A stretch of 64,000 nt of DNA from Hemiscyllium ocellatum. Taxonomy: Eukaryota. The stretch spans positions 89,147,857 to 89,211,856 of the forward strand of contig NC_083407.1 of the NCBI RefSeq assembly GCF_020745735.1, read 5' to 3'. A program made the translations under genes and the position numbers. Within the stretch, counting starts at the first letter, position 1, and each line of letters begins with the position of its first letter. The notes beneath the pieces are model-generated. The model searched no databases and was not told where the DNA came from. It was given only the letters and a program-made list of their open reading frames with translations. Below, piece by piece: positions 4,040 to 60,068 of this stretch.

Positions 4040-6005
4040 TTAAAAGTCTCTCATGCGCCTGAAAGATCCAATAGTTGCGTTGTAGCCTCCCCAGTCACTG
4101 TATCTCCTGTATTCACCGGGTCTCATGAAGTACTGTCGCCCTCTGTAACTGGGATGTTCATAGAAGATCCAGTAACCGTCCATCACATGGCAGGAGTGGA
4201 TGTCACGGTAACGGAAACGATCGTAGACAGATGGACAGTCATCCATGAATTCCATCATCTGTCCTCCAAAGTCAGGCCTCTCGTAAATCCTCATTCTGTA
4301 GGAGCCTCCTCGGTACTGCAATAGAGAAAAAACAAATTATTCATTTACTGGATAAGATCATCCCTGGTCAGGCCAGAAATTATTGCCCATTCCCAGTTGT
4401 CCAGAGGGCAGCTAAGAGTCAACCATATTGCTTTGGGACTGAAGTCACGTGTAGGCTGGACCATGGAAGGACAGCAGTTTCCTTCCCTAAAGGATATTAG
4501 TGAGCCAGATGGGTTTTTCTGACAATGGCAATGATTTCATGTACAATATTAGATTCTTAATTCCATTGCAGGATTCAAACCCAGATCTCCGGGAGGTTAG
4601 CTGGTTCTCAACATTAATAGTCTAATGATAATATCACTAGGCCATCAACTCCTCTGAAATGGAACATGTGTAATGTATCTATAAACATATTTGTACCAAG
4701 TGCAGTAAAATTGTATAAAAGAGGATGTGTTTTCTACTTGTAACATTATCAGGGAAACTACTTACAATTTTAATGAAAATTCTCAAGCAAAGGCATTAAA
4801 CAGCTTGTTTTGTATCAAGCTGTTCATGTCTCTTTTTGTATGTTGCAGTATTTGGTGCTTGGCTCCCAGGCGTTTTGTAATCACTGTTTTGATAATATTC
4901 AATATTATCAAACATTGAATAAAAATTACTGTTGATAAAAATAAAACCATGAGCGGAAAAGTTTTTGGAATGAAATTACTGTGCAGCCAGCTTTGGAACT
5001 AGAAATGGATATCCAGTTTGTGAATACTAACTTTGGAAATATGGGAACAAAGAAACAGGAATAGGTTATAGTGCCCTTCAAGCCTCTTCTGGCACTCAAT
5101 GAAGTCATGGCGGACTATGACCTAAAGAGTTGCTTCCAATTAGTATGTCCTGGGAAAGAAGTAGAAGAAAGTCTAGAAAGCATTTTGATACAATGTTTTC
5201 TCATGAGTTGTCCAATAAGTAGGTACAAGTATGAACATTTGGCTCCTGAAAAAATTCAGGTCACATTTCTCTCACCTTTCCAGCATGTGGTTTATCATGA
5301 ATGCTTAGCCACACTATTTATTATTTATTTTGTTAATACGTGTATCAATGAGAGTTTACACAGAGATTGTTTTGACTGGTCCCTGTGTTTTCTTGGAAGA
5401 TGAGTGGAAATCCACCCTGACTCTATCAGTGTATCCCAACAGTTCCATCCATTCTCCATCCAAGTTACAGCTATCAATCAGGCCAGTCCTGAGGAAAATC
5501 ATGCATGTTACAGCAGAGGCAAATTAGTCATGAGCAGACGCAATGCAGGAATGTGGAAATGAGAAACCACGGAACCTTTTGATGGATTAAAGCAATAGGT
5601 GAACAATCCTTTATAAATATTAACCAAGTGACCAGTTCATTTTGTCTATAAGGACATGTTTGACTTACATGTGGGTAGGAGCGACATGACCTGACACAGT
5701 CATTGAATCCCATCCAGCGCTGGTAGTCAGGATACTCTCCCCTGGTCAGAACATACTGGTATCCCATGTAATTGGGTTTCTCATACACCACCCACCAGTC
5801 ACTCTCAACACGGATGGAGTTACAGCGGCTGAAGTAAGGGGACAGGTCGGCACAGTCACTGCTGCACTCATAGTGCCGTCCCTGGAAGTTCCTGTCCTCG
5901 TAAAAGATGATCTGTGGGCAAAGGAAATGAAACAAAATATTTCTGTTTTCCAAATAATTATTAATAAAAGGTGACAACAATGAGGGTTAACCATACCTTT
6001 CCCAT
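4040..6005 (-). CDS. cryg: Gamma-crystallin gene 1, join(5997..6005, 5669..5911, 4040..4315), 175 aa
   Basis: Exon 1 ATG GGA AAG|GTATGG; exon 2 [20 protein letters not shown]...[16 protein letters not shown] (243 bp, cag| and |GTAAGT); exon 3 [23 protein letters not shown]...[10 protein letters not shown] (276 bp). Four Greek-key motifs, phase-0 introns, TATA at 6063-6070, AATAAA at 3987-3992. Confidence 0.96.
4370..4655 (+). repeat. Recurrent ~280-bp interspersed repeat in intron 2 of gene 1
   Basis: ccagagggcag.taagagtcaacca.attgct...ttccttccctaaagga.attagtga.ccagatggg, also seen at about 2740, 6850 and 45715. Confidence 0.65.
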
Positions 6006-13347: not shown

Positions 13348-14974
13348 CTAGAAATCCCTCATTCGCCTGAAAGATCCAATAGTTGAGCTGTAGCCTCCCC
13401 AGTCACTGTATCTCCTGTATTCACCGGGTCTCATGAAGTACTGTCGCCCTCTATAGTTGGGATGTTCATAGAAGATCCAGTAACCATCCATCACATGGCA
13501 GGAGTGGATGTCACGGTAATGGAAACGATCGTAGACAGATGGACAGTCATCCATGAATTCCATCATCTGTCCTCCAAAGTCAGGCCTCTCGTAAATCCTC
13601 ATTCTGTAGGAGCCTCCTCGGTACTGGAATAGAAATAAGATGTTATTGTAGATATATACTTAATATATACAAAATAGTTAGCCATTGTTCAAATGGACAG
13701 TAGGTATCATTCCCTGAAAAAAAAGGGAGACACAAACACACACAGATCTTGGTTCTCAGGTACTACCTTATACTACTAATCGGGAGGGAGAGTGAGCAGA
13801 CCTCCATGAACTGCTCCAGTTTTCTCAGGGACTGAAAACACACTTGGTATTCATCTGCATTTCACATCGTGCCAACTGTACTAGCCTAATCCCACATATG
13901 GCAGTAAACAGAAAGCAAGACTGATATATAACAAGGCCCATTTGATGACATTAACCATGGGAGCAAAACTGAGGTGACCTATTATTATCAGTTTAATAGG
14001 TTGCTGTGTTTGAAGCTTCTATATAATCTTGTGCAGCTAATCACAAAAGTGCCTGTAAGAGTACATGGAGATTAATATTAGTTGGACACAGACTGAAGTT
14101 TATCAATGTCCATAAAATTCTTTTGCGATTGCTGTCATTTTGTGTTTCTCCAAGTAGGACAATCTGTTCCTTCCTATATAATTTATTAAATAGTTAAAAT
14201 TAGCTGAATTGAGTAAGTAAAATTATATCACTTAACAGATTGTATTCAGTTATCACTTAGTCCAGCTGTAGATTACTTTATTGTTTCAATTTGGATGGAC
14301 TGCCATCATGTGGTACACAAAGCTAAGTTTACACAACTATTGCTTTAAGAAACAAACTGCCTAACTTAATCTCAAGATCAAAGTTACAGAGGCTTTTACT
14401 AGTTATTGGTAGTGACAGAAACATGTGGATTAGTAAATCAGATCAGATGGGTGACAGACAGACAGTCTACTGCCTGCTAACACCATTGGCAGAAGTTAAC
14501 TTCTGGCCTGCGGAAATAGCCAATGATTGTACAGACTTGTTGCTCATGATTTAAAATTTTGAGCATTTTGATCATACCTCAGTGTTAGTTTGGGTCAGAA
14601 ATGCAAACCACCAGAAATGACTCACATATGAGTAACTGCGACATGACCTGACACAGTCATTGAATCCCATCCAGCGCTGGTAGTCAGGATACTCTCCCCT
14701 GGTCAGAACATACTGGTATCCCATGTAATTGGGTTTCTCATACACCACCCACCAGTCACTCTCAACACGGATGGAGTTACAGCGGCTGAAGTAGGAGTGC
14801 AGGTCGGCACAGTCACTGCTGCACTCATAGTGCCGTCCCTGGAAGTTCCTGTCCTCGTAAAAGATGATCTGTGGAAAGAGATAAGTCTTTGTAAATTACT
14901 CATTTCTCAAAATCAGCAATACTTTATAGAAAATTCTGACAACATATAAACAATGTCATTCTTGCCTTTCCCAT
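13348..14974 (-). CDS. cryg: Gamma-crystallin gene 2, join(14966..14974, 14626..14868, 13348..13623), 175 aa; GC-AG intron 1
   Basis: ATG GGA AAG|GCAAGA; exon 2 with [14 protein letters not shown] ending RSYSY|GTGAGT; exon 3 open to TAG; TATA at 15030-15037; AATAAA at 13314-13319. Confidence 0.95.
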
Positions 14975-25638: not shown

Positions 25639-27478
25639 CTAGAAGTCTCTCATTCGCCTGAAAGACCCGATAGTTGAGTTGTAGCCTCCCCAGTCACTGT
25701 ATCTCCTGTATTCACCGGGTCTCATGAAGTACTGTCGCCCTCTGTAGTTGGGATGTTCATAGAAGGTCCAGTAACCGTCCATCACATGGCAGGAGTGGAT
25801 GTCACGGTAACGGAAACGATCGTAGACAGATGGACAGTCATCCATGAATTCCATCATCTGTCCTCCAAAGTCAGGCCTCTCATAAATCCTCATTCTGTAG
25901 GAACCTCCTCGGTACTGCAATAGAGAGAAATGAAACATCGTGAAGCAGCTATAATTGTATTCCATTATGAAAAAAAAATTATTGTAAAGTAGTTGCGTTA
26001 TGCTTGTAAAATTGGCAGCCATTTTGATGAAAATCCTCCACCCGAAGCATTAAGCAGTCTTTTTGGCTTCTAAATATGGGCAGGACTATCGTATATGTTC
26101 AACACTTTGTTGGTTTCATGGATGTTCAGCAGTATGGTATCAATTTTAGTCCTCAGATGTAAGAGCTGCAGCATTTTGGATTGAAATTCTACTCAAGACA
26201 ACTGTGAGAAGTGGAAACCAGCATGTGGTATCTGAATACCAATTTGATATTCAGCTGATTATTGACATTTAATGGGAAGACAGTGAAAAGACTCAACCCT
26301 TTGAATCTCTTCCAACATTGCATGAGATCTTGGCTGATCTGTCACCTAAATCCCCGTGTGGTGTGTAGTGAGTTACTCTTGGCTGCACTACTTAGGAGTG
26401 AAGTAAAAGAAAGTCTGGGGCCCTTGTCCATGCAGTATTTTGTGGCAAGTTGCTCAAAATGTCATGTTATTTCTATCTATCAAATGTTTGAAGACCGGAA
26501 CCAGTCAAGTCAGATTTCAAACAGGTTTCCAAACCTTGATTAATTTAAATATTCCGGCAAACTACTTCTTTATTTTAAGAATCGTTTTACTAGGGGCTTA
26601 CTCAGAGATTGTGGTGCTGGAAAAGTAGAGCAGACCAGGCCTAATCCAAGGAGCAGGAGAAGGGCCTATGCCCGAAAATTCAATTCTCCTGCTCCTTGGA
26701 TGCTGCCTGACCTGCTGTGCTTTTCCAGCACCACACTCTCGACTCTGATCTCCAGCATCTGCAGTCCTTACTTTCTCCTAGCTCGGAGATTGTTTTGACT
26801 GGTCCCTGTGTTTTCTATGGAGGATGAATGGAAATCCGCCCATTCCCCGACCAGTGTTTCCAGCAGTTCCATCGATTTCTCACAAAAGTTACAGCGATAA
26901 ATCAGGTCAGTCCTGAGGAATTGCTATTATGAATGATACGGCATTAACAAACAATTGAAACTTACAACTTTCAAATTTGGATGAATGATAAAGAATTTGA
27001 TGAAAGGAAAGTGGGAATGCAAAACAATTGCAATAGCTTTGATTCAATCCATAAAGGATAAAGGAACCAACAATTACAAACATAAGTTGATTGACTTGTT
27101 CATTTTGTCTGGAAAGACAATTAATTTATGACTCACATATGGGTAGGAGCGACATGACCTGACACAGTCATTGAATCCCATCCAGCGCTGGTAGTCAGGA
27201 TACTCTCCCCTGGTCAGAACATACTGGTATCCCATGTAATTGGGTTTCTCATACAGCACCCACCAGTCACTGTCAACACGGATGGAGTTACAGCGGCTGA
27301 AGTAAGGGGACAGGTCGGCACAGTCACTGCTGCACTCATAGTGCCGTCCCTGGAAGTTCCTGTCCTCGTAAAAGATGATCTGTGGAAAGAGATAGATTTG
27401 TGTTATAATCTTGTCAAGCTAGGAGGTATGTAATAAACAATTCCAAACAAATTCTTAAGTTTCTCTTGCCTTTCCCAT
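25639..27478 (-). CDS. cryg: Gamma-crystallin gene 3, join(27470..27478, 27137..27379, 25639..25914), 175 aa; GC-AG intron 1
   Basis: ATG GGA AAG|GCAAGA; exon 2 ...[15 protein letters not shown]...RSYPY|GTGAGT; exon 3 open; TATA at 27536-27543; AATAAA at 25585-25590. Confidence 0.95.
26610..26782. mobile_element. Short Penelope-like inverted terminal repeat in intron 2 of gene 3
   Basis: gtggtgctggaaaag...cttttccagcaccac arms; gggcctatgcccgaaa remnant; interrupts a block shared with intron 2 of gene 1. Confidence 0.7.
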
Positions 27479-35134: not shown

Positions 35135-36460
35135 CTAAAAGTCCCTCATTCGCCTGAAAGATCCAATAGTTGAGCTGTAGCCTCCCCAGTCACTGTATCT
35201 CCTGTATTCACCGGGCCTCATGAAGTACTGTCGCCCTCTGTAGTTGGGATGTTCATAGAAGATCCAGTAACCGTCCATCACATGGCAGGAGTGGATGTCA
35301 CGGTAACGGAAACGATCGTAAACAGACGGACAGTCTTCCATGAATTCCATCATCTGTCCTCCAAAGTCAGGCCTCTCGTAAATTTTCATTCTGTAGGAGC
35401 CTCCTCGGTACTGGAATAGAAAAACATGAGAGATTTGTGATGTAGCTACAAATATATCTACAATTGATGCATGTGTGACTGGTGATATTTCATGCATATA
35501 AACACAAGTATATTGATAGCAGTAGACACCTTAATGTAGTTCTAGTTGCTCTTGTGGGAAGACTTTTTTTCCCAAGTGCCAGCAGCTTTCTCTTTTATGT
35601 AAACTTTTCATTATTTACAGTTAAATGAATGGGAAGAATACAAACATCTCCATCGACAAGTTTTATGACTCAGGTTTTATCCAATTATCCTTGTTACATT
35701 CTGCAATGTCAATATGCTAATTTAACTTTCAGTTCGGAATATCAGAGTTGTTATTTGCAAACGTTTCAATTATATCCCAGATGATCATCAGCTTTGCAAC
35801 AGTACATCAGTATATGATGCAGTACTAACTTCCCAGCTTGCACAAGTGTTGACTGAAGAACTACCTATATAACAAGTATAGTGACAAAGTTTTGGCAGTG
35901 ACAGAAACACAATTAGTGAATTGGTAAATCAAACTGGTTGTGTCACAGTCCACTACATATTACCATCATTTATGAAAATTAAAATCAATCCTGTGAAAAT
36001 AAAGATCACCTTTACATCTCATTCAGACAAACCCAAATGTTGAGTGCATTAATCATTATCTCAGTGTCAGTTTGATCAGAAAGTACAAACCACCAGAAAT
36101 AACTTACGTATGGGTAAGTGCGACATGACCAAATGTTGTCATTGAATCCCATCCAGCGCTGGTAGTCAGGATACTCTCCCCTGGTCAGAACATACTGGTA
36201 TCCCATGTAATTGGGTTTCTCATACACCACCCACCAGTCACTCTCAACACGGATGGAGTTACAGCGGCTGAAGTAAGGGGACAGGTCGGCACAGTCACTG
36301 CTGCACTCATAGTGCCGTCCCTGGAAGCTCCTGTCCTCGTAAAAGATGATCTGTGAGGGAAGAAACAGGTTTGTAAATTCATGATTTCTCAAACTTTGCT
36401 ATTCCTAATAGAAAATTTTAATACAACATATGAACTCAAGATAATCCCTGCCTTTCCCAT
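35135..36460 (-). CDS. cryg: Gamma-crystallin gene 4, join(36452..36460, 36108..36350, 35135..35410), 175 aa; GC-AG intron 1
   Basis: ATG GGA AAG|GCAGGG; exon 2 ...[13 protein letters not shown]|GTAAGT; exon 3 open; TATA at 36516-36523; AATAAA at 35080-35085. Confidence 0.93.
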
Positions 36461-37629: not shown

Positions 37630-39900
37630 AAACAGGGTGCCACCATTTAAGAAAGGTGGTAAGGAAAGGCCAGTGAAATATAGACTAGTGAGCTTGAGAT
37701 CGATGGTAGGTAAGTTGATGGAAAGGATTCTGAGGGACAGGATTTGCATGTATTTGGATAGGCAAGGATGGATCAAGATAGTTAACACTTCTTTGTGTGT
37801 GGGAAATTGTGGCTCACTAACTTGATTGAGTTTTTTGAAGAAGTGACAAAGAAGATTGTTGAAGACAAAGCAGTGGACAGGTGGTATTCAAGAGGTGGGG
37901 AGGCTGCAGACAGATTTGGAGAATGTTAGGAGCGTGGATAATCAAGTGGCAGATGGAGTACAACGTGGGGAAATACGAAGTCTCGCACTTTGATCAGAAG
38001 AATTGAGGCAGGAATTATTTTCTAAATGAGAAGAAAATTTAAGTCTTAAGTGCAAAGAGGCTTGGGAGTTCTAGTCCAGGATTCTCTCAAGATAAAATTG
38101 CAGGTTGAGTCATTAATTAGGAAAGCAAATGCAATGATGGCATTTATTTTGAGAGGACTTGAATATAAAAGCAGAGATATACTTCTGAACATCTACAAGG
38201 CTCTGCTCAGACCACATTTGGACGATTGTGCTCAGTTTTGGATCCCATACCTCAGGAAGCATGTACGGTCCTGGAGCGTGTTCAGAGGAGGTTCACAAGA
38301 GTGGTCCCAGGAATGAAACACTTAACATATGAGGAATGTTTGAGGACTGTAGATCGATAGTTGAGGAAGTTTAAAAGGATAAGGGGGGAATCTAATTGAA
38401 ACTTACAGAATACTGAATGGCCTGGACAGAGTAGACGTTAGGAAGATGTTTCCATTGGTGTGAGAGACTAGGAGCCAAGGGCATAGCCTTAGAGGAAAGG
38501 GAAGGCCTTATAGAACAGAGATAAGGAGAAATTTCTTCAGCCAGACAATGGTAAATCTATGGAATTCATTGCTGTAGAAGGCTGTGGAGGCCAGGTCATT
38601 GGGTATATTTAAGACTGAGATAGATAGATTTTGAGTATCGAGGGAATCAAGTATTATGGGGAGAAAGCTTGAGAATGGGTTGAGAAACTAATCAGCCATG
38701 ATTGAATGGCAGAGCAGACTCAATGGGCTGAATGACATAATTTCTGCTCCCATGTTTTATGGACATTGTCTATGTGGATTTGCATAAGGCCTTCAAGAAG
38801 ATTCTGCATGGTAGAGTGTTTAGCAAGGATAGATCAAATGGAGTCAGGAGAGTTTGCCATTTGGATACAAAATTGACCTGAAGGTAGGAGACAGAATGCG
38901 GTTGTTGAGATTTGCTTTTTGGACTGGAGGCCTGTCATCAATGGTCAACTGCAAGGTTCAATGCTGGGTCCACTGCTTTTTGTCATGTATATAACTGATT
39001 TGGATGTAAATCTCAGGGATATGGTTAGTAACTTTGCAGCTGACATGACAATTGATGGTATAGTGGACAGCAAAGAAGATAATGTCACAATACAACCATA
39101 ATCAGATTGGCAAATGGGCCAAGGAGTAGCAATTGGAGATTAATTTAGATAAATATGAGGTGCTGCGTTTTAGGATGGCAAATCAGTACAGGACTTACAC
39201 GCTTCATGTTAAGGTCCTGAGGAGTGTTGCTGAACAAAGAGACTTCAGAGTCCAGGTTCATATTTTGTTGAAAGTTGATTTGCAGATGAACAGGATAGTG
39301 AAGAAGGCGTTTGTTACACTTGCCTTTATTGCTCAGTGTATTGAGTAAATGAGTTGGGTGGTTATACTGCGATTGTGCAGGACGTTGGTTAGGCCACATT
39401 TGGAATATGCCATTCAATTCTGGTCTCCCTGCCATAGTAAAGATGTGTGAAACTTGAAAGGGTTCAGAGAAGATTTACAAAGATGTAGCCAGGGTTGGAA
39501 GATTTCAGCGATAAAGAGAGGCTGAATCAACTGGGGCTATATTTCGTGGAGTGTCAGAGGCTGAGGGGCCACCTTATAGAGGTTTATAAAATGATGAGGG
39601 GCTTGGATAGGGTGAACAGTCAAGATTGTTTCCCCAGAATAGAGGAGACCAAAACTAAAGGACATAGTTTAAATTGAAGGGGAAAATTAAAAGGGGACCC
39701 GAGGGGCATTTTTTTCATATAGGCAGTGTGCGTATATGGAATGAACTGCAAGAGGAGATGGTGGAGACTAGTACAATATTTAAAAAGCATCTGGATAGAA
39801 AAATGAATAGGAAAGGTTTAGAGGGATATAAGCCAAATGCTGGCAAATGGGATGAGATTAGTTTAGAATATCTGGTTGGCATGGACAAGTTTAACCTAAG
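37630..39900 (+). mobile_element. CR1 RT fragment (37630-37880 and 38760-39900) split by a second CR1-subfamily 3' end (37880-38760)
   Basis: YRLVSLRSMVGKLMERILRDRI, QGSMLGPLLFVMYITDLD, LLRPHLDDCAQFWIP. The 'gcagtggac' at 37871 resumes as 'ggacattgtctatgtggattt' at 38761. Confidence 0.85.
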
Positions 39901-40335
39901 TGTAGCAGCCTCCTGTATAAAAACAGGGCTCATCTACACAGCTTTCTCTTGGAACCGCTCTTGAAGTCATCTGAAGCTTTCTGAGGAGACCAGCATAGTA
40001 AGAGGCAGAGACCAGCTGGCGAACCATAGAAAGGGAGAGGGCAAAAGCAGCTTCACAGACCCAGAGGTAGGACCATAGAGAAAGCAACTGCATCAATTTA
40101 TAAGAGACTTGGAAAGTATTGTATTCTTAAGAGACCAAATAAGATTGTGGATAATATGTTTAGCATTAAAGATTATTGTAATTATGTTTCTAATAAAGTA
40201 GGAGTGTTTTGATTTGGTATCAGCTTGCGTCATATCGATTTGACCATTTTGGTATTGTAGGTCCACCTGGTCAAATTCAGTCCTAATAATCTGGTCGGAT
40301 TTATCTGTAACTCATTTAAATGGAACCAGACAACA
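39901..40335 (+). mobile_element. Probable solo LTR inserted in a CR1 3' UTR
   Basis: Starts TGTAG and ends CAACA; TATAAAA near 39916; AATAAA near 40192; the CR1 tail resumes at about 40336. Confidence 0.5.
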
Positions 40336-40389
40336 GAAAGGTCTGTTTTCACGGTGTCCATCTCTCTGACTCAAGGACTCTAATAGTTT

Positions 40390-42422
40390 TCAGGAAGTGA
40401 GGAAACAGCTCCCACCCTCTAAGATTTTGGCACAATATGATCCCAAATGAGATCTGGGATTAACATGCAATGCTCTCCCTCGTAGAGCTGAGGGGTTACA
40501 TTAGCTCAGAGATGGCGCAATGGAGAGGGACACTCAATGCATCCAAGACTTTGGCTAATGTGCCCAGATAGTGTAGAAAGGATTGGCAGTCATATTTGGA
40601 GTCAGGAAAAGTTCCAACATTACTTTATGAAAATTTGAAACAATAACAGACATCAAAACCCTGCTAAGTCTACTTAAAGAGGGCAAGGCAGTGCCATCCA
40701 TAGCTTCAGGCAAAATTCATCAGTTGACTCTAAGATTAACTGTGTATAATTACAAGTTAGAACACTGTCTGGGAGGTCAAGTAGCAAACATGGATGCACT
40801 GAACTGCCACCCACTGGCAGATAAAAAACACATGGTACCACCACTGGAGGAGTCCATAATGATGTTAAATTTTCTGGACACGTTTCCAATCACAGCTGAC
40901 AATGTCAGACATTGGACACAGAAAGATCTGCTTCTGACATATTAGAAATAGCTGGTGGTGATGCGAGAATCACTGTATACAAGATAGACAAGATCACTGT
41001 ATATTCTTGTGGAAAGCAAGAGTGATTACCTTGAGCAAAGGTCACCATGAGATACTGGCTGAATACGATACTGGTCATTCAAGGGGTTTCCAAAATGAAG
41101 ATATTGGTGAGAAATTATGCCAGGTGCCAAGATTTGGATACAGACAGAGCCGTGTTGGTGGGGCAGAACCCAGAGTGCCACCACGGACAAAAATTACCAC
41201 CAGCAGCTCTGCCACATTGTTGGGAATGGATGCAGTTAGACGTAAATTATGTTGGTGCATTCATGGATCAACGTTCTTAGTAATTGTGGGTGGCCGCTCA
41301 AAATAGCCGGACATGCATAGTGTTCATGCATAAAACACAGTGACAACAATACAAAAATTGCACACATACTTATTTGCCAACAAGAAATTTGAGAATTTGC
41401 TAAAGTCGAATGGGATTCATCATTTAAGGACAGCTTCATACCATCCATCATCCAATAGTCAGGCCAAAAGAACAAACTTTAAAGGTAGGCTTAAAGAAAC
41501 AGCATACTGCTTCATGAGATACAAAACTGCTCCAGTTTCTATTTGATTATAAGACTACCCCTCATGCAACTACAAGAATAACTTCAATAGAGTTGCTAAT
41601 GGGGAGAAGACTCCACATCAAGTCAAACCTGATCTTCCTGGACCTGGGAGGCAAGGTGAAATGGCAGCAGAAACGCCAATGATGAAAACAAGACTCCACT
41701 AAGTGACAGATAATTTACTTTAGGGGATGAAGATTGGTGTAGGAAACACAAGAATGACCCGGCATGAGTAAGAGATGGTCGACGCGAGATCAGAAGCAGT
41801 TACATGCAAAGTTCAGGTCAGCGCATGGTCCTGAACATAAGTGAACCATATGAAAGCTGCAAACTTGCAAATGGTGCAGGAACAAAGCATGACCAGCTCC
41901 TCGACAGCCTTTCCGACTGTTTTGCAACCCATGGCTTTTCCTTCTTCCTCAGGTGTTGAAGACAGCTCAGAATCTGAGATGGATACGGTGGATATTGCCA
42001 CCTCATCACCTTTGCTGTCTGAAGCAGAGAAATAATTTCTTCTGAGATGCTTGACGAGCTACAGTGCATTACACAGCGTATGTATCAGCAGCAGGGTTGG
42101 AGGAAGCTGACCCACTGGTAAAACACCTCAGGAGAAACTATGAAATTAAGAACTGGCCGATATCCTCAGACTCAGAGGGAGAGGGCTGTAGTGATTGTAA
42201 CAAAGTCAGCCAGGTGACCGTCATTGAATGTGAGTTCCCTGATTGAGGCTGCTAATCTGGTCCAACCAGGGAGCCCTGGCTGACAGATATAAACAGGGGT
42301 ACCAAAGGTTCAGTTCACTCTAAGAGCTGGCTCTGAAGGAGCTGGATCAGTGTCAAGGACTCTCCATGTGTAAACAAAGGGTGATTTGGTGATTGGATAC
42401 CAACCTCTGTGGAGGTATTACA
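40390..42422 (+). mobile_element. Decayed Gypsy LTR retrotransposon 3' half (RNase H, integrase, PPT, LTR 42187-42422)
   Basis: QGVSKMKILVRNYARC...PECH, GIHHLRTASYHPSSNSQAKR; PPT gagggagaggg; LTR TGTA...TACA. Confidence 0.85.
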
Positions 42423-42839: not shown

Positions 42840-43835
42840 CTAAAAGTCCCTCATTCGCCTGAAAGACCCGATAGTTGAGCTGTAGCCTCCCCAGTCACTG
42901 TATCTCCTGTATTCACCGGGTCTCAGGAAGTACTGTCGCCCTCCGTAGTTGGGACGTTCATAGAAGATCCAGTAACCGTCCATCACATGGCAGGAGTGGA
43001 TGTCACGGTAACGGAAACGATCGTAGATAGATGTACAGTCATCCATGAATTCTATCATCTGTCCTCCAAAGTCAGGCCTCTCGTAAATCCTCATTCTGTA
43101 GGAGCCTCCTCGGTCCTGGAATGGACAGAAATAAAAGATTTGTGATGCAACTAAAACTATACCTACAATCGATATAGGTGGGACTGGTGTGATATTTCGT
43201 GCATACAGACAGAATTATCAGTAAAAATCTTAATGTATTTCTGGTTGCTCTTGTAGGTAGATTTTTTTTCAAACGGGACCAGCTTTCCCTTTTCTGTAAC
43301 CTTTGCAATATTTACAGTTAACTGAATGGGATGAATACAAATATCCCCATCGATAATTTGTACTGAGTCACATTTTAGACAATTTGACCTCGTAACATTC
43401 TGCATTGTCAATATACAAATATGTCTTTCAGTTCAGAATATCTGATCTGTTATTCGTAAATGTTTCATTTATAACCCAGATGATCATCAGTTTTGCAACA
43501 AGTCAGTATATGCCGCATAACGATCTTCCCAGCTTGCACAACTATTTCGGAACTACCCATAAAACAAGCGATGTTACAAAGTGACAAGGGCAGTTGTTAC
43601 CTTTTGGCAGCAACAAAAATGCAACTTAGTGGATTGGGAATTGAATTTACACGGATGATTGTCCAATACCTATTACCGTTTCAAAGAAAATTGATGTCAA
43701 ACCTGCGAAAGTAAACATCTCCTTTACACCTTATTCAGACAAACCCAAATGTTGAGTGCATTAATCATTATCTCAGTTTGATCAGAAAATATAAACCACC
43801 AGAAATAACTTATGTATGGTAAATGCGACATAACC
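42840..43835 (-). pseudogene. cryg: Truncated gamma-crystallin copy 5: intact exon 3 (42840..43115), intron 2, and about 22 bp of the exon 2 3' end
   Basis: Exon 3 [18 protein letters not shown]...RRMRDF* is open with an AG acceptor. The exon 2 remnant (43814-43835) has a 1-bp deletion and its donor is mutated GT>AT; Penelope sequence follows. No exon 1 or rest of exon 2 was seen. The AATAAA is degraded (about 42785). Confidence 0.9.
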
Positions 43836-45670: not shown

Positions 45671-47309
45671 TGTATAGAGGGCTAGGCTAATGCTTATTGC
45701 ACATCGTGCATTACCCAGAGGTCAGTTGAGAAGCAATCGCATTGTTGTGGGTCTGAAGTCTCATATCATCCAGACTAGGTAAGGATGGCAGTTTCTTTCC
45801 CCAAAGGACGTTACTGAACCAGATGGGCTTTTCCCCTGACAACTGACAATGGCTTCATGGTCATCATGAGACTCTTTAATTCCACCTTCTGCCATGGCAG
45901 GATTCAAACCTAAGTCCCCAGATCATTGTTTAAGTCAAATAGTCATTGGATCATAGAGATGTACAGCATGGAAATAAACCCTTCGGTCCAACTCGTCCTT
46001 GCTCAGATATCCTAACCTAATCTAGTCCCATTTACCAGCACTTGGTCCACATCCCTCTAAAACATTCCCATTCATATACCCATCCAGTTACCTTTTAAAT
46101 TTGGTAATTGTACCAGCCTCCACCACTTCCTCTGGCAGCTCATTCTATACATGCACCACCCTCACTGTGAAAATGTTGTTCCTTATGTCGTCCCATTTCC
46201 CCCCTCCGTTGAAGCAAAATGCTCAGAGACTCAGTGTAGTTTTACCTCTTTCATCTTTATTCCAGGCCCTGGAGGGAGAGAGAACAATCTCCCATGTACA
46301 TAGGGACATGAGTTCATGGTCTTCTCTGGAATATCAGTTTTTCAATTAACTATATCGTCATTTTACAGGGAGGAGCATCCAGATAAGACAACATACATAT
46401 TGATTGGGTGATGGTTACAATCAGCGAGCATCAACAGTAGAGATTAAACCATCTGCTGTTACACAATGAATGTTCTTGAAGCTGTTAACTGGCTTCACAT
46501 AATGAATACTTTTCCCCTTGTTAAGTGGTGTTGCATACTGAATGCTTCAGATATTGTTAAATGGCTCTATACAGTGAATGCTTTTTCACCTTGTTAACCC
46601 ATTACCCTTGCCTGCAGCATCCCATTGTTAACTGTAAATTCTTATCTAATCTGAGTCATGCTCAGCTGAATCTCTTGTTTCACAAAACTCAGAACTTAAC
46701 TCTTTCCCTGCCTATGCACATTCTCATTCCCTCCTTTTATCATTTTATGATAACCAATGGCATTACCAGCTTTCATAACACTCTGACAGCCTGTATTTAA
46801 GCAAGTTTTTGACACACATCATACAATGAATATAACAACAAAAATTACCATCTGTTACAATAAATAGAATTTGAAGAATTCTCCCATGTGGAAAAAGGTC
46901 ACTAGTAAAGCTCTTAAATCCACAGTCCTTAGTGCCAACTCCATGCCCTCCAAGTCGCGTGGAAACGAGCCAGTTCTTCAAAATTCTCCTTCAGTAAAGT
47001 CCAACCTGAAAACAAAATCCATTCTGTCCTTGCATACTACTCCATGGAGAATCTGAATTCTTGGATAAGGGCAGTTAAATACAACACAAGACTGACAAGA
47101 CTTCTATCCTTCAAAAGATACTTCAGATGGAGGATACCAGTACATCTGAGTGTGCAGTGCAGCAGCTGCAGCAGCAGGCTAGGTGAAGCCCGCTGTGCTG
47201 TTAAATGTAACAAAGCCAACTGGCTGTTGTGAAGTTTGTGTGATTAGTGAACCTTCATATCCCTTAAATGATCAGAAGACAAGGTTAATCTCAAATGGTT
47301 TGATGTCTA

Positions 47310-47618
47310 TAGATTAGATTAGACTTACAGTGTGGAAACAGGCCCTTCGGCCCAACAAGTCCACACCGACCCGCCGAAGCGCAACCCACCCATACCCCTA
47401 CATTTATCCCTTACCTAACACTACGGGCAATTTAGCTTGGCCAATTCACCTGACCCGCACATCTTTGGACTGTGGGAGGAAACCGGAGCACCCGGAGGAA
47501 ACCCACGCAGACACGGGGAGAACGTGCAAACTCCACACAGTCAGTCGCCTGAGTCGGGAATTGAACCCGGGTCTACAGGCGCTGTGAGGCAGCAGTGCTA
47601 ACCACTGTGCCACCGTGC
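47310..47618 (-). mobile_element. HE1/V-SINE, near full length
   Basis: tRNA-like head (A box TGGCACAGTGG, B box GGTTCAATTCC), V-domain, (aatct)n tail; possible TSD ctatag. Confidence 0.92.
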
Positions 47619-48284
47619 GCTATAGGAAGGCCACTGACAAAAAACATACCTCTTCATTGTTGTTATTTTCTTAACTTTTTGTGTTCATTTGGGGAGCTGA
47701 TTGAATCCATTAGATCAGGTTGTGGAGGGGTGGGTGGTGGTCCGAAGGTGTGCTTTACCATGAATAGAGAAACTCTCGAGAAGATGTTAGCTGCTGAAAG
47801 TATATCTGCGTTTCCTCTCATTCCTTCCTAGCCAAGGTAGTTATCAGTATGAAGACAATCTTACGTTTAACTACACTAATTTGTGTCTGCTATTTCAACA
47901 TCCTTTGAATGCTTGAAGTCTGTTACTCTGTTCATTATTTATTCCATTATCAAGTTTTATACAATCAAGAAACTTCTAAATTGGACTGCCTAAACAAGTT
48001 AGTCAATTATAAACAATAATCAATGGTCCTAAAATCAAATCCTCGGTGCCTCCATCCAGATTACTCAAAAATTATTTTCTTTTAGTAAATTGATACTTGG
48101 CTAATGTGAAAACTATCAGGAAAAGTATTTCAAAAATCTGGAAAACAACAAAATGTTTCCTGTGCTTTAGCAATTGAAGAGGCAGATATTTGTGGGAAAC
48201 AATTGCTGAATATATTAAAATATTTTCTCTAAATGAAACTTCCCAAATAAAACAATCAGAATTACATTGGCAACTGTGGTAGAC

Positions 48285-49250
48285 ATGATTTGGAAATGCC
48301 GGTGTTTAACTGGAGTGAACAAAGTCAAAAATCACAACACCAGGTTATAGTCCAAGAGGTTTATAGAGTCATAGAGATGTACAGCATGGAAACAGACCCT
48401 ACAGTCCAACCTGTCCATGCCGACCCAATCTAGTCCCACCTGCCAGCACCCAGTCCATATCCCTCCAAACCCTTCCTGTTCATATGCTCATCCAAATGCC
48501 TCTTAAATGTTGCAATTGTACCAGCCTCCATCACATCCTCTGGCAGCTCATTCCATACACGTACCACCCTCTACATGAAAAGGTTGCCCCTTAGGTCTCT
48601 TTTATATCTTTCCCCTCTCACCCTAAACCCATGCCCTCTAGTTCTGGACTCCCCGACCCCAGAAAAAGACTTTTGTCTATTTATCCTATCCATGCCCCTC
48701 AAAATTTTGTAGACCTCTATAAGGTCACCCCTCAGCCTCCAATGTTCCAGGGAAAATAGCCCCAGCCTGTTCAGCCTCTCCCTAGAGCTCAAATATTCCA
48801 ACCCTGGCAACATCCTTGTAAATCTTTTCTGAACCCTTTCAAGTTTCACAACATCTTTCCGATAGGAAGGAGACCAGAATTGCACGAAATATTCCATGTC
48901 CTGTACAGCCGCAACATAACCTCCCAACTCCTGTACTCAATACTCTTACCAATAAAGGAAAGCATACCAAACGCCTTCTTCACTATCCTATCTACCTGCG
49001 ACTCCACTTTCAAGGAATTATGAATTTGCACTCCAAGGTCTCTTTGTTCAGCAACACTCCCTAGGACCTTACCATTAAGTGTATAAGTCCTGTTAAGATT
49101 TGCTTTCCCAAAATGCAGCACCTCACATTTATCTGAATTAAACTCCATCTGCCAGATCAATCACCTGATGAAGGAGCAGTGTTCCAAAAGCTAGTGCTTC
49201 CAAGTAAACCTGCTGGACTATAACCTGGTGTCGTGTGATTTTTAACTTTG
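48285..49250. mobile_element. Penelope-like inverted terminal repeat split by a CR1 3' fragment (48365-49155, minus)
   Basis: Arms at 48285-48364 and 49160-49250 (degenerate hammerhead at 49162-49196, GAAA>AAAA); CR1 ORF YFVQFWSPSYRKDVVKLERVQKRFTRMLPG. Confidence 0.85.
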
Positions 49251-49744
49251 GTAGAAATCAACATTCTTTGAATTTGTAATATGAAAAGGGCCAATGAAGT
49301 CTTAACAATAATTAACAGAATTTAAACAGCTCAGCCTCAAGTTCTGACATTCTCTAAAATCCAAATGAAACATCACACTCAAAATGCACTCTCTTTTTCT
49401 GAACACTCTGCATTAAAAACACAGCAGCAAAGATATTTTAACATAATACTCTCCTCTGGCTAAAGAATGACCACTGACCCAGCTCTTCTTTTTTAAACAG
49501 GCATTATATAATTTCAGGACACTCAATCAATTTATTTTAAGGTTACAAGTTTGATAACTTAAAAGGACATAATGATGTAAAATTTTAATGTAAGAACAAA
49601 ATCTGCCCTATTACACAGCCGGAAAAACACATTGAATTGAGATCCTGATTCGAACAAGATAAAACAGTTACTTAAAAGGATTTTCTGAACCAGTATTTTA
49701 ACAAAATAAAATTTTGAAACATCAAACACATCAAGTTTCACCAC

Positions 49745-50335
49745 TTCGGGACTTTAACCCCTTTCTTACTTTATTCCTCATGAAGACTCGAACCCCATTC
49801 AAACACAAAGAACCCAAATGCCACTTAAACACAGAAAACTTAAACCCCAATTAAACACAGAAAACTCAAACCCCAACTAAACACAGAGCGCTTAAACCTC
49901 ACTTAAACACAGAAACCTCAAACCTAGTTTAAACACAGAGAGCTAAAAGATCACTTAAACACAGAAAGCTCAAACCTCAGTGAAGTGCGGAGGATTTGAA
50001 CCTTAAATTAACGCACCCAGTAGACTCAAACCATAGTAACGCGCAGAGGACTGAAACCTGAATCGCACCCACCCAGGGGGCATTAACCCCAGTACCGTGC
50101 AGAGGACTCGAACCTCAATTACACCCACCCCAGGGGATTCAAACCCCAGTACCGCACAGAGGACTTGAACTTCAATCACACCCACCCCAGGGGACTCTAA
50201 CCCAGTACCACACAGAGGATTTGAACCTCAAATACACCCACCCCAGGGGACTCGAACCCCAGTACCGCACAGAGGACTCGAACCTCAATCATACCCCCTC
50301 CCCCAAATGCAACACAGAAGACTCGAACCTCTGCC
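49745..50335 (-). repeat. Tandem repeat array in the LTR-element leader: ~26-bp units, then ~57-bp dimeric units carrying GGTTCGAGTCC hairpins
   Basis: ggactcgaacc is perfect at 50104-50114, 50248-50258 and 50274-50284, with about ten variants from 49749 to 50329. Confidence 0.9.
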
Positions 50336-51379
50336 TGCCAGCGCACTTGAGAAACTGTGTCTCTCTACTGAACTAATTACCATTTGAGTCGTCCATAGAG
50401 GAAGTGCGAGCGAGCAAGGGGACCATCACCAGCACACAGGAATATTGAGAAGGACCAAAGTTTAAAATGTTACCTTGTGGGCTCGTCCATCTCAAGACAT
50501 TGACATTCCGGGTGGCAGCTGACACTGTCCGATTGTAACTATTCGTTTGGATCCAGCCGACTTCGCCAATATTGTTGTCCCATTCCCCCCTCAGATGAAG
50601 CAAAATGTTCAGAGACACAGCGTAGTTTTACCTCTTTCATCTTTATTCCAGGCCTTGGAGGGAGAGAAAATAACCGTCCATTTGCATAAAGACATAGGAT
50701 TGCATTCTTCTCTAGAACAACAGTTTCTCAATGAACTATATAGTCATTTTACAGGGAGGAACATCCACATAAGGCAATACACATTAACTGGGTGATGGTT
50801 GCAATCAGCGAGCATCAACAGTAAAGATTAAGCCATCTGCTGTTACACAATGAATGTTCTTCACTCTGTTAACTGTCTTCACATAATGAATACTTTTCAC
50901 CTTGTTAACTGACGTTGCATACTGAATGCTTCCAATATTGTTAAATGGCTCTACATTGTGAATGCTTTTCCACCTTGTTAACCCATAACCCCTGTCTCCT
51001 GAACCCCATTGTTAACTGTATGTTCTTATCTGATCTGATTCATTCTCAGCTGAACCTCTTGTTTCACAAAACTCAATTCTTTCCCTGCTTGCTTATACCC
51101 TATACGCATTCTCACTTAGATCCCTTTTACGTCTTTCCACTCTCACCCTAAACGTATGCCCTTTAGTTCTAGACTCCCCCATCCCAGGGAAAAGACTTTG
51201 TCTATTTATCCTGTCCATGCCCCTAATGATTTTATAAACCTCTATAAGCCACCCCTTAGCCTCTGACAGTCCAGAGAAGACAGCCCCAATGTATTCAGCT
51301 TCTCTCTATAGCTCAAATCCTCAACCCTGGCAACATCCTTGTAAATCTTTTCTGAACCCTTTCAAGTTTCACAACACCC

Positions 51380-53509: not shown

Positions 53510-55325
53510 CCGTATGCATCCAAGACTTCAGCTAATGCAGTGCATAAATACAAACCAATTAGAGAAGGAGGGTTTGGCAGTCATATCTGGAGTCAGTCAC
53601 CAATCCCTTTACAAAATATTTGAAACAATAACAGAAAACAAAACCCTGCACCTCTACTTAATGAGGATAAGGCAGTACCAACCATAGCTTCAGGCCAATT
53701 TCAGCAATGGGCTCTAATACTAAGTGCTTATAATTACAAGTTTAAGAGCAAGGTTTAAGAGGCCACTTAACAAATTTGGATGCACTGAGCCACCTCTCAA
53801 TGACAGATACAAAACACATGGTGCCACCACTGGAAGAGTCCATAATGGTTTTAAATTTTCTGGACACACTAACAGTCACAGCTGACAATGTCAGACTTTG
53901 GACACAGAAAGATCTGCTCCTGATTAAATTGAAATAGCTGGCGGTGATGGGGAAACCAAAGGGCCATCACAAACAGAAGTGATACCTTTTTGGGCCCTGA
54001 GAAACCTGATCACTGCAGAGGAGAGCATATTATTGTGGGGAGCAAGAGTGATTGTCCTGAGTACAGGTCACCATGAGATACTGGCTGAATACCATCCTGG
54101 TCATCCAGGGGTTTCCAAAATAAAGATGTTGGCGAGAAGTTATGTCAGGTGCCAAGATTTGGATACAGACATAGCTGCACTGGTGGGGCGGTGCCCAGAG
54201 TGCCACAAGGGCAAAGTTACAACCAGCAGCTCTCCCACATTCGTGGAAATGGTACGGTAAACCCTGGACTCAGTTACACATTGACTGTGAAGGCCCTTTC
54301 GTGGGCTCAATGTTCTTAGTCATTGTGGAGGACCACTCAAAATAGCTGGGTGTGCATAAAGTTCATACATAAAACACGGTGACGACAATAGAAATAATGC
54401 ACGCATCTTTTTCAATACGTGGACTACTGGAACTGAGATCACAGATAATGGGACATCATTCACCTGCAGGGAATCTGAGTTATCCTAAAGTCGAATTGGA
54501 TTTGTCATATAAGGATATTCGATGGTTCGATGGTCTGGAAGAAAGTGTAGTCCAAACTTTGAAGGTAGGCTTAAAGAACCAGCCTACTGCTTCATTAGGT
54601 ACAAAGCTGTTTCAGGTCCTATTTGATTACCCCTCAAATAAATATTAGGATAGCTCTAGCAGAGTAACTCATGTGGAAAAGACACTGCAACAGGTTAAGT
54701 CTGGTCTTCCTGAACCTGGGGGTGAGGATGAAACAGCATCAGGAAACATCAATGTTGGGTACTCCAGGGGAAAAAGGTTGGTGTAGGAGCCACAAGAATG
54801 GCCCTGCATAGGTAAGAGCATGGTCAATGCAAGGTCAGGAACAGTGACGTAAAACGTTCGGGTCAGTATGAAGGTCCTGAACAAGCACCTGGACCACATG
54901 AAAGCTGCAAACTTGGAAAGTGTGCGGAACCAAAACATGACCGGCTCCTCTACAAACTTTCCAATTGTTCTGAAACCTGTGGGTTTTCCCTCTCCATCTG
55001 GTGTTGAAGACACCTCAGAATCTGAGATGAACACAGTGGATATTACCACCTCAGCACCTTTGCTGTCTGAAGATGAGAATGAATTTCTTCTGAGATGCTC
55101 CAGGTGCAAGAAGTGAGCTACAGTGCATTACAGGGTGTATGTATCACAGGCAGGGTGGGAGGAAGCTGACCTGGTGCTAAAATGTCTCTGGAGAAACTAC
55201 GAAGAAAGAACCAGCTGTATTCTCAGACTCGGAAGTAGTGATCTTAATAAGGTCAACCACGTAGCCATCATCGAATGTGAGTTCCCTGATTGGGGCTGCT
55301 AACCTGGTCCAATCAGAGAGCCCTG
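53510..55325 (+). mobile_element. Second copy of the decayed Gypsy (integrase region plus truncated LTR)
   Basis: HPGHPGVSKIKMLARSYVRC...GRCPECH; colinear with 40540-42277. Confidence 0.85.
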
Positions 55326-55640
55326 ACCACCAGCACTGGATGGGATTCAATGACAACATCAGATCATGTTGCACTTACCAATAGGTAAGTTATTCCCACT
55401 GGTTTATATTTTCTGATCAAACTGGGGTAATGATTCATGCACTCAACTGTTGGGCTTGTCTAAATCAGGTGTCAAAAAGATTTTTATTTTCACAAGATTA
55501 ATTTTAACTTACGTCAATGATGGTGACAGGTAGTGGATTGTCACACCCAGTTGGATTTACCAAGCCACTAAGTTGTGTTTCTGTCTCTGCCACAAGTTAG
55601 TAACTGCCCTTGTCACTTTGTGTAATTATACTTGTTTTTT
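55322..55640 (+). pseudogene. cryg: Inverted gamma-crystallin relic: 3' end of exon 2 plus about 255 bp of intron 2
   Basis: 55322-55384 translates [20 protein letters not shown] followed by GTAAGT. The downstream sequence aligns with the reverse complement of intron 2 of copies 4, 5 and 6 (tggtttatattttctgatcaaactg...gcactcaac...). Confidence 0.88.
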
Positions 55641-56152
55641 GGTACATATGTGCTCAATTCTGGTCTCCCTCCTAACAGAAGGATGTTGTGAAACTTGTAA
55701 GGGTTCAGAAAAGTTTTAAAAGGATGTTGCCAGGGTTGGAGGGTTTGAGCAATAGGGAGAGGCTGAATAGGCTGGGGTCTGTTTTCTTAGAGCGTCGGAG
55801 GCTGAGGGGGGACCTTATAGAGGTTTATAAAATTAATAGAGGAATAGATAGGATAAACAGTCAAGGTCTTTTCCCCAGGAGAGTGGAGTCCAAAACTAGA
55901 GGAAATTGGGTTAAGGTGAGAGGGGAAGATCACAAAAGTACCTAAGGCCAACCTTTTCACACATAGGGTGCCAGAGGAGGTTGTGGAGACTGATGAAACA
56001 TTTAACAGGCATCTGGACGGGTATATGAATATGAAGAGTTTATAGGGATATTGGCCAAATGCTGGCCAATGGCACTAAATTAATGCACAATATCTGATTG
56101 GCAAGGACGAGTTGGGCCAAAGGGTTCGTGCTATACATCTCTCTGACTCTAT
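55640..56152 (+). mobile_element. CR1 3' end
   Basis: KLVRVQKSFKRMLPGLEGLSNRERLNRLG...RLRGDLIEVYK. Confidence 0.88.
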
Positions 56153-58741: not shown

Positions 58742-60068
58742 CTAAAAGTCCCTCATTCGCCTGAAAGATCCAATAGTTGAACAGGTTGCTCCCCAGTCAC
58801 TGTATCTCCTGTATTCACTGGGCCTCATGAAGTACTGGCGCCCACTGTAATTGGGATGTTCATAGAAGATCCAGTAACCATCCATCACATGGCAGGAGTG
58901 GATGTCACGGTAACGGAAACGATCGTAGACAGATGGACAGTCATCCATGAATTCCATCATCTGTCCTCCAAAGTCAGGCCTCTCATAAACCCTCATTCTG
59001 TAGGAGCCTCCTCGGTACTGGAATAGAGAGACATGAAAGATTTGTGATGCAGCTACAAAAATATCTACAATCAATAAATGAGGGACTGATGATATTTCAT
59101 GCTTACAGACAGAAGTATACTGTTATCAGTAGAAATCTTAATGTATTTCTGGTTTCTTTTGTAAAGAAACTATTTGTCCAAGTGGGGCCAGCATTCCCTT
59201 TTCTGTCATCTTTTCTGTCATTTACAGTAAGATGAATGGGATGAATGAAAACGTGCCCATTACCAGGTTTATTGTGCTATATTTAAACCAATTTGGCCTT
59301 GGTACTTTCTGCAATGTCAATATCAATATGCCAATTAGACTTTCAGTTCTGAGTATCTGATGTGTTATGAGTAAATGTTTCAATTGGATCCCAGCACCAA
59401 GTTGTAGTTAAATGATGCAGAACTAACTTCCCAGTTTGCACAACTATTGACTGAAGGATTACCCATACAACAAGTGCGGTTACAATTTGACAAAGGTAGT
59501 TACTAATTTTTGACAACAACAGAAACACAATTTAGTGGATTGCTAAATCAAACGGGTCTGTAACTGTTCATTACCTGTGACCGTTGAAGAAAAATAAAAT
59601 CAACCCTGTGAAATGAAGATCGCATTTACACCTTACTTAGACAAATATGGAGTGCGTTAATCATTATCTCAGTGTCAGTTTGATCAGAAAATACACACCA
59701 TCAGAAATAACTTACATATGGGTAAGTGCGACATGACCAGATATTGTCATTGAATCCCATCCAGCGCTGGTAGTCAGAATACTCTCCCCTGGTCAGAACA
59801 TACTGGTATCCCATGTAATTGGGTCTCTCATAGAGCACCCACCAGTCACTCTCAACACGGATGGAGTTACAGCGGCTGAAGTAAGGGGACAGGTCGGCAC
59901 AGTCACTGCTGCACTCATAGTGCCGTCCCTGGAAGTTCCTGTCCTCGTAAAAGATGATCTGTGAGGGAAGAAACAGGTTTGTAAATTCATAATTTCTCAC
60001 ATTTAGCCATTCCTAATGGAAACTTTTAATACAATATGTGAACCCCTAATAATTCTTGCCTTTCCCAT
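58742..60068 (-). CDS. cryg: Gamma-crystallin gene 6, join(60060..60068, 59716..59958, 58742..59017), 175 aa; GC-AG intron 1
   Basis: ATG GGA AAG|GCAAGA; exon 2 ...[24 protein letters not shown]|GTAAGT; exon 3 open ([17 protein letters not shown]); TATA at 60124-60131; AATAAA at 58687-58692. Confidence 0.93.

Follow-up and report, generated by a model that had tools for sequence, protein, structure and literature searches.

The 64-kb stretch of shark DNA analysed here (the window) holds an LTR element whose 5' leader contains a tandem array of short hairpins resembling the T-arm of tRNAs, and the question that it raises is what such an array is for. An earlier note on this DNA had proposed that it could be a string of tRNA mimics acting in packaging, in primer interaction or in RNA modification, or else a TFIIIC-binding, insulator-like array dropped into a cluster of crystallin genes. 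The layout of the array, its history in the family, its counterpart in a second retroviral lineage and its predicted folding are considered in turn.

The array is composed of 21 units that run on the minus strand from 50331 to 49747, the first of them 220 nt after the primer-binding site (PBS), confirming a tandem array in the leader of an LTR element at the distance that had been noted. Two hairpins, GAGG-TTCGAGT-CCTC (A units) and GGGG-TTCGAGT-CCCC (B units), alternate as described; their stems have 4 bp, one short of the canonical number, with T.T at the fifth position, and the compensatory A-U/G-C difference between them corresponds to one true double change from A to B. Three perfect copies of GGTTCGAGTCC (at 50284, 50258 and 50114) were counted exactly, and the variant units number 18 rather than about ten. 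The proposed repeat of about 57 nt with two hairpins holds for one segment, since Tandem Repeats Finder resolves two segments, a 56-nt dimer at 49990-50296 (5.4 copies, 56-57 nt each) and a 26-nt monomer at 49782-49976 (7.5 copies), whose stems are weaker than those of the dimer segment. Four Watson-Crick pairs are retained in about 6 of the 21 units and GTTCNANNC in 7 (two units being cut out of register in both counts), and GGTTCGANNCC is perfect in three. When a relaxed pattern for the core was searched in the window, its 12 matches all fell within the array, compared with 1.14 expected from 100 shuffles, among which the largest count was 4. Over the array region ARAGORN found no tRNA gene and Rfam matched no family, and the exact array patterns gave no match in viral and metagenome contigs. 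Exons of gamma-crystallin type, which we assign by motifs in their translations, lie on both flanks of the element as the earlier note had stated; they belong to at least six genes in tandem with near-identical exons.

Features of the window copy and its surroundings (positions in the window)
Feature	Position	Strand	Remarks
TSD TAAG	51115-51118 and 46182-46185		flanks both LTRs
5' LTR	50573..51114	-	TG...CA; polyA signal near 50645; 36-nt U3 repeats at 50843-50982
PBS	50551..50568	-	16 of 18 letters as in the exact PBS of other copies
Predicted major splice donor	50468..50479	-	GT at 50473-50472
Array, part 1	49978..50331	-	first unit, then alternating A (26-nt) and B (30-31-nt) units; 15-nt quasi-palindromic core in each
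Array, part 2	49747..49978	-	26-nt C units with G.U-rich weak stems; two terminal units
AT-rich interior	49244..49740, resumes 48286-47860	-	found family-wide
Later insertions, high-copy LINE-like fragments	48287..49243	.	missing from other copies; presumably CR1/HER1
Integrase remnant	47710..47860	-	internally deleted; 78-84% identical to the sister-lineage piece
Captured spliced RBPMS2 cDNA	46899..47705	-	joined host exons and 3' UTR; internal deletion, stop codons
SINE splitting the RBPMS2 cDNA	47310-47612		
Polypurine tract	46727..46738	-	
3' LTR	46186..46726	-	85.8% identity to the 5' LTR; K2P 0.13
Gamma-crystallin-type genes	4043-5986, 13351-14895, 25642-27418, 35138-36398, 42843-43214, 58745-60012	-	
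Another repeat, two decayed copies	39446-42278 and 53653-55906	+	80-85% identical; we take it to resemble a Gypsy-type pol region

The element measures about 4.9 kb and has paired TG...CA LTRs, a tRNA-Ser PBS, a polypurine tract and a 4-bp target-site duplication (TSD). The exact PBS found in other copies is complementary to the host tRNA-Ser(AGA) plus CCA. These copies have the same order of LTR, PBS, leader, array, interior and LTR at about 78-80% identity, with an interior that lacks a long frame (Pfam searches of the derivative interior in 24 frames returned no family), and the TSD matches in four or three of its four letters in 13 of the 14 copies read at both ends. The divergence between paired LTRs (median K2P 0.143, range 0.072-0.177 in 18 copies) indicates that the family is old. 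Contigs of two other organisms cover the LTR and the array in all 30 bins, and the ERV family, at the family level only, is therefore shared with them. An exact tRNA-Ser PBS was also found at one locus (G000:C193:531454, minus strand) in an element without the LTR and the array of this family.

In some copies that share the LTR, PBS and leader, the sequence runs on into decayed gag-pol (30 matches in one search). The reverse transcriptase of these relatives is closest to that of MLV/XMRV among solved structures (E 2e-20), and one of them (L185) contains a zf-CCHC domain with a single knuckle, RNase H, the rve integrase core and MLVIN_C. Because relatives sharing LTR and leader carry MLV-type gag-pol, the family is one of class-I endogenous retroviruses (ERVs), an assignment made from reverse transcriptase and domain matches that stops short of the genus (gamma or epsilon). 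An origin from Gypsy/Metaviridae is ruled out by the MLV-like reverse transcriptase and MLVIN_C. Pfam gave no env match in the decayed frames of the relatives, where one stretch looks env-like by eye; a protein search with the reverse transcriptase piece found no match, which is weak evidence, and neither did a PDB search using one frameshifted pol frame. A helper was sought in 40 sampled loci of the at least 150 with Gag_p30 in the genome, none of which was similar to the array family; their PBS candidates, among the matches listed, are presumably of Pro or Lys type. Near the contig ends of C1, C3, C5 and C8, an LTR-less gag fragment of the array family lies in near-identical contexts (L193-L200), and these fragments are likely segmental duplicates. 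The copy in the window, which derives from a decayed class-I ERV and is non-autonomous, is a dead insertion with no sign of present function.

In the relatives that retain gag-pol, the array begins downstream of the predicted splice donor and stops within about 40 nt of the predicted start of gag. The donor GT is retained in 46 of 61 distinct copies, and the array itself persists in both defective derivatives, including the one without gag and pol. Tandem duplications of 93-95 nt or 54 nt also stand just after the predicted PBS in other ERV lineages (L130, L132, L134, L136 and L141), and leader duplication is therefore recurrent.

The interior of the derivative contains a second trait of interest, a piece of the host gene RBPMS2 that was first spotted by eye in the translations and then confirmed. 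Host exons spread over 74 kb (G000:C181, 20.48-20.56 Mb) lie joined and intronless in the elements, which means that a spliced RBPMS2 mRNA was captured; one of the exons is identical to a Chiloscyllium protein. The piece encoding the N-terminus matched at every one of the 150 places scored, out of 441 candidates (both lineages pooled), and the cDNA occurs at no fewer than 150 sites, in two lineages with different LTRs and PBS (L223-L260). The second lineage emerged with an RBPMS2 exon absent from the array family as a probe, which detected 35 further places besides the host gene; the eight that were examined belong to this sister lineage, in which pieces of deleted gag and pol are followed by a larger part of the RBPMS2 coding region. 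The array family has the same integrase remnant together with a further internal deletion. The cDNA apparently passed from one ERV lineage to the other, and the integrase-RBPMS2 cassette was likely moved by recombination between co-packaged RNAs, in a direction that we infer. Differences from the host gene are nearly even across codon positions 1 to 3 (11%, 13% and 17% in nine sister copies; 9 of 19 shared differences fall at positions 1-2), and one stop codon is common to 20 of the 29 readable array-family copies (34 examined), for which reasons the cargo is regarded as a passenger free of coding selection. RBPMS2 has a role in the oocyte. Transcripts or small RNAs from the RBPMS2 parts of the elements might conceivably influence the host gene.

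The sister lineage also permits a comparison of the leaders. No blastn match to the array family was found in its LTR or leader at 1e-5; when aligned, the leaders are 50% identical and the gag pieces mostly 38-49%, and the stretch around the splice donor is the best-conserved part of the leader. Downstream of the same donor, the sister leaders typically contain three units (for example, GAGG-TTAGAGT-CCTC in L232). In the 28 sister leaders 14 motif hairpins were counted, where shuffled sequences gave 0.97; the corresponding figures for 40 other ERV loci are 11 and 7.5, without a single instance of the array-family core. Between the two lineages the commonest letter differs at one core position out of 15, compared with 93 of the 209 columns of the leader (Fisher p 0.003, from 25 and 11 copies with noisy anchors, the core identity within the family being 0.61, and with the unit picked by resemblance), although the same mean identity as that of the core is reached in 36 of 195 leader windows. 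The spacers are unrelated, with an identity of 0.14 over the 11 letters past the core. This 15-nt core kept beside unrelated spacers in a diverged lineage suggests that it is likely selected. The only changed letter stands at loop position 3, where sister loops have C in 3 of 26, 1 of 21 and 0 of 19 cases (4 of 66, with flank-only anchors) and otherwise A or U. This is the very letter fixed by both the B box and the TRUB1 motif, which undercuts the B-box reading and that of a strict tRNA mimic or TRUB1 substrate. Conservation across copies, which the earlier note had named as a check on loop and stems, thus stands for the core as a whole and fails for the B-box letter and for covariation.

Taken as an RNA element, the array is likely tied to packaging, because it lies between a conserved donor and gag; in MLV the Psi site is placed between the splice site and the start of gag (PMC7599994). 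The cassette common to the two lineages indicates that they recombined, which suggests co-packaging. We give an even chance to the possibility that the array is a dimerisation or packaging element of a class-I ERV, quasi-palindromic and amplified by slippage. Each core is predicted to have three possible partners, namely itself, in a hairpin of 4 bp with a 7-nt loop, an adjacent unit, or its counterpart in a second genome. A switch between these pairings would present G-rich loops, together with the UCUG overlapping the A-unit stem, to Gag-NC with its single zinc knuckle. A comparable behaviour is described for MLV, in which pseudopalindromes undergo register shifts and NC binds UCUG (PMC7599994). 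The original units, perhaps three, would have multiplied via copying errors in reverse transcription and later by unequal chromosomal crossover. TCTG follows 91 of 111 A units; it does not follow the cores of the sister lineage, whose loop is non-palindromic. What remains of the idea of a leader element acting in packaging is therefore a family-wide RNA element, likely tied to that process, without strict mimicry of a tRNA T-arm.

The predicted energies are -4.6 and -6.7 kcal/mol for the isolated hairpins and -19.7 and -23.9 for the two-copy self-duplexes, and in the predicted folds the units tend to pair with neighbouring ones, the local stem having in its context a mean pairing probability of 0.29 (median 0.06) and exceeding 0.5 in 8 of 29 intact units from 19 copies. 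The stability of the array shows no excess over shuffles (z -0.65 in the window, mean z -0.29 over 49 family copies); in the sister lineage it is slightly above them (mean z -1.33, 23 copies), and its fold has a double change at 2 of 13 predicted pairs. The strongest z, -5.9, comes from a single fragment (L095). Nor does the loop form duplexes especially well, since 148 and 191 of 420 permutations are equally stable. A kissing-loop reading of the UCGA loop was rejected, as this loop is not special among its permutations and is missing in the sister lineage. Because the copies are decayed, these tests are weak either way.

Array length varies from 2 to 54 units in the family, with a median of 13 (49 readable array ends among 61 distinct copies); some copies have only two or three units or have lost most of the array, and at one locus (L050, G000:C1:4686875-4695433) the leader array has grown to a satellite of about 8.5 kb with 241 motif matches, with no family LTR in 10 kb of upstream sequence. 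Measured against the window unit, identity is 87-97% at core positions outside CpG and only 61-70% at the loop CpG, so that the decay of the core in the family is ordinary, CpG-led and neutral. Fully paired units are no more frequent than when the arms are shuffled among units for A (128 of 189 versus 127.7) and B (81 of 147 versus 77.6), which gives no covariation, and show a weak excess for C (96 of 151 versus 89.5, reached in 56 of 2000 shuffles). The common variants other than A-to-B are compatible with drift by C>T and A>G on a strand rich in G and U, by which G.U pairing is kept without selection. At loop position 3, B-type loops have A in 17 of 78 and G in one, and this A suggests an inherited variant.

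Similar cores were observed elsewhere in the genome. Satellites of several kb with B-box-like cores are present on C125 (L093/L175, G000:C125:18.01-18.03 Mb) and at L101 (G000:C188:32.77 Mb), with units of 24 and 41 nt and without the LTR of the array family. A second repeat family (L085-L092) consists of a 25-nt minisatellite with a GGTTCGAGTCC-like core but no 4-bp stem, in arrays of up to several kb (e.g., G000:C1:111.17 Mb, C5:26.15 Mb and C7:14.96 Mb) that probably have the opposite transcriptional sense to the ERV array; they adjoin a common stretch of about 190 bp, which we take to resemble a reversed L2-type LINE tail.

The variable length, the large satellite at L050, the CpG-led decay, the lack of a folding signal, the preservation of G.U pairs by drift alone and the occurrence of the core in unrelated minisatellites would all be expected of a functionless minisatellite, one that template slippage and unequal crossover built up from a short seed in the leader, the likeness of its cores reflecting common descent and recombination between units. 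This alternative is possible, although on the whole rather unlikely, as it has to face a core retained with different spacers where the leader is only 50% identical, a fixed position between donor and gag, and an array kept in both defective derivatives.

Less probable again, and doubtful in our view, is a polymerised mimic of the T-loop, with a U1.A5 closing pair and a free position 3, that would be recognised by Gag or by tRNA-modifying enzymes. Loop positions 1, 2, 4 and 5 are constant across the lineages and position 3 is C, A or U, and constant positions with a variable position 3 are a property of T-loops (PMC4810234); this pattern fails to single out the T-loop, because position 6 and the letters of the stem show the same constancy. 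Intact units fit GUUCNANNC with four pairs, and TRUB1-type modification rises with the number of pairs and tolerates some flexibility at +1 (PMC5340967). This TRUB1 core, with a 7-nt loop and a paired stem, is present in 86 of 189 A and 71 of 147 B units, but in 11 of 151 C units, and the low probability of the local stem, four pairs instead of five and the loss of the tRNA-invariant C in the sister lineage also speak against mimicry. The precedent is box B of BMV, an isolated mimic of the T-psi-C loop in the RNA3 recruitment element, for which m5U and pseudouridine have been demonstrated (PMC13191261, PMC5869524). Box B and the array have in common a B-box-like loop in a viral RNA that may single out the genome for a compartment of replication or assembly; the shark array is, unlike box B, degenerate and retroviral, and does not conserve the invariant C. 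Strict mimicry of a T-arm or of a TRUB1 substrate, as first proposed, finds no support in view of that lost C, the lack of covariation between A and B arms and the hairpin probability of 0.29. A variant in which polymerised T-loop hairpins would themselves be the packaging signal, as a retroviral parallel to box B, seems a little more improbable still; in it, T-loops of adjacent units or of two genomes would interdigitate, linking the genomes or holding the elbow of the primer tRNA-Ser, and the common core would have enabled the co-packaging of the two lineages and the transfer of the oocyte RBPMS2 mRNA between them.

In Pol III promoters the A box lies 30-60 nt upstream of the B box. That the array is a set of TFIIIC B boxes acting as DNA, as an insulator or Pol III element in the gamma-crystallin cluster, is highly improbable and unsupported: for all its three perfect GGTTCGANNCC copies, the fit of the PBS (50557-50568, minus strand) to the A-box pattern and the similar core in another repeat family, the B-box C is kept in 4 of 66 sister loops, A or U taking its place, and is replaced by A in 17 of the family's 78 B-type loops, the CpG of the B boxes decays in all copies, the sole A-box match in the element is the PBS, more than 220 nt upstream and probably a coincidence (12 A boxes counted versus 11.8 by chance), paired B boxes number 85 genome-wide versus 71 in a reversed control, and the window copy is one among many scattered ones, broken by later insertions.

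Several known systems invite comparison, the first of them for the cargo. Acutely transforming viruses and VL30-like elements are gene-transducing defective retroviruses, with LTR-mediated retroposition. The shark element resembles transducing retroviruses and VL30-like elements in that a spliced host cDNA replaces gag-pol between the LTRs and is mobilised by a helper, and differs from transducing retroviruses in that its RBPMS2 cargo has been amplified in the germline to at least 150 sites, in two ERV lineages, with a passenger-like decay; as a germline example of retroviral gene transduction, this capture may matter as much as the array. Tandem repeats in the leaders of the Drosophila elements gypsy, ZAM and Idefix (Metaviridae) are reportedly sites of DNA-protein interaction. 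The shark array is also made of tandem motifs in the 5' leader of an LTR element, but no function at the DNA level is supported for it. Among the class-I (gamma/epsilon-like) ERVs of cartilaginous fish, CmiERV lineages II and III share with the array family a shark host, old age, an MLV-like reverse transcriptase and the integrase C-terminal domain; the array family differs by its Ser PBS and by the leader array, none being described for CmiERV in the available part of that source (PMC4422223).

Little is known about the packaging signals of class-I retroviruses in fish and sharks, a subject on which a single general review was found, and the literature yielded no earlier description of the array or of an ERV carrying RBPMS2; Dfam and Repbase lay outside the search, and a prior annotation of the array family as a repeat family is quite possible. 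A short core that has reached about 50 copies at most and persists in two lineages is a candidate for a minimal packaging element. In MLV, the SL-C and SL-D loops are GACG tetraloops, unlike the shark array, known here from its sequence, in which one core with a 7-nt loop is repeated 2 to 54 times. The likeness to the core encapsidation signal of MLV, as set out in the cited accounts, lies in the position between donor and gag and in the use of tandem short stem-loops, in DIS-1 and DIS-2, which are, like the cores of the array, near-palindromes capable of forming intermolecular duplexes, and in a class-I reverse transcriptase and a single-knuckle NC that MLV has in common with the helper of the array, where UCUG overlaps the A-unit stem (PMC7599994, PMC12789967).
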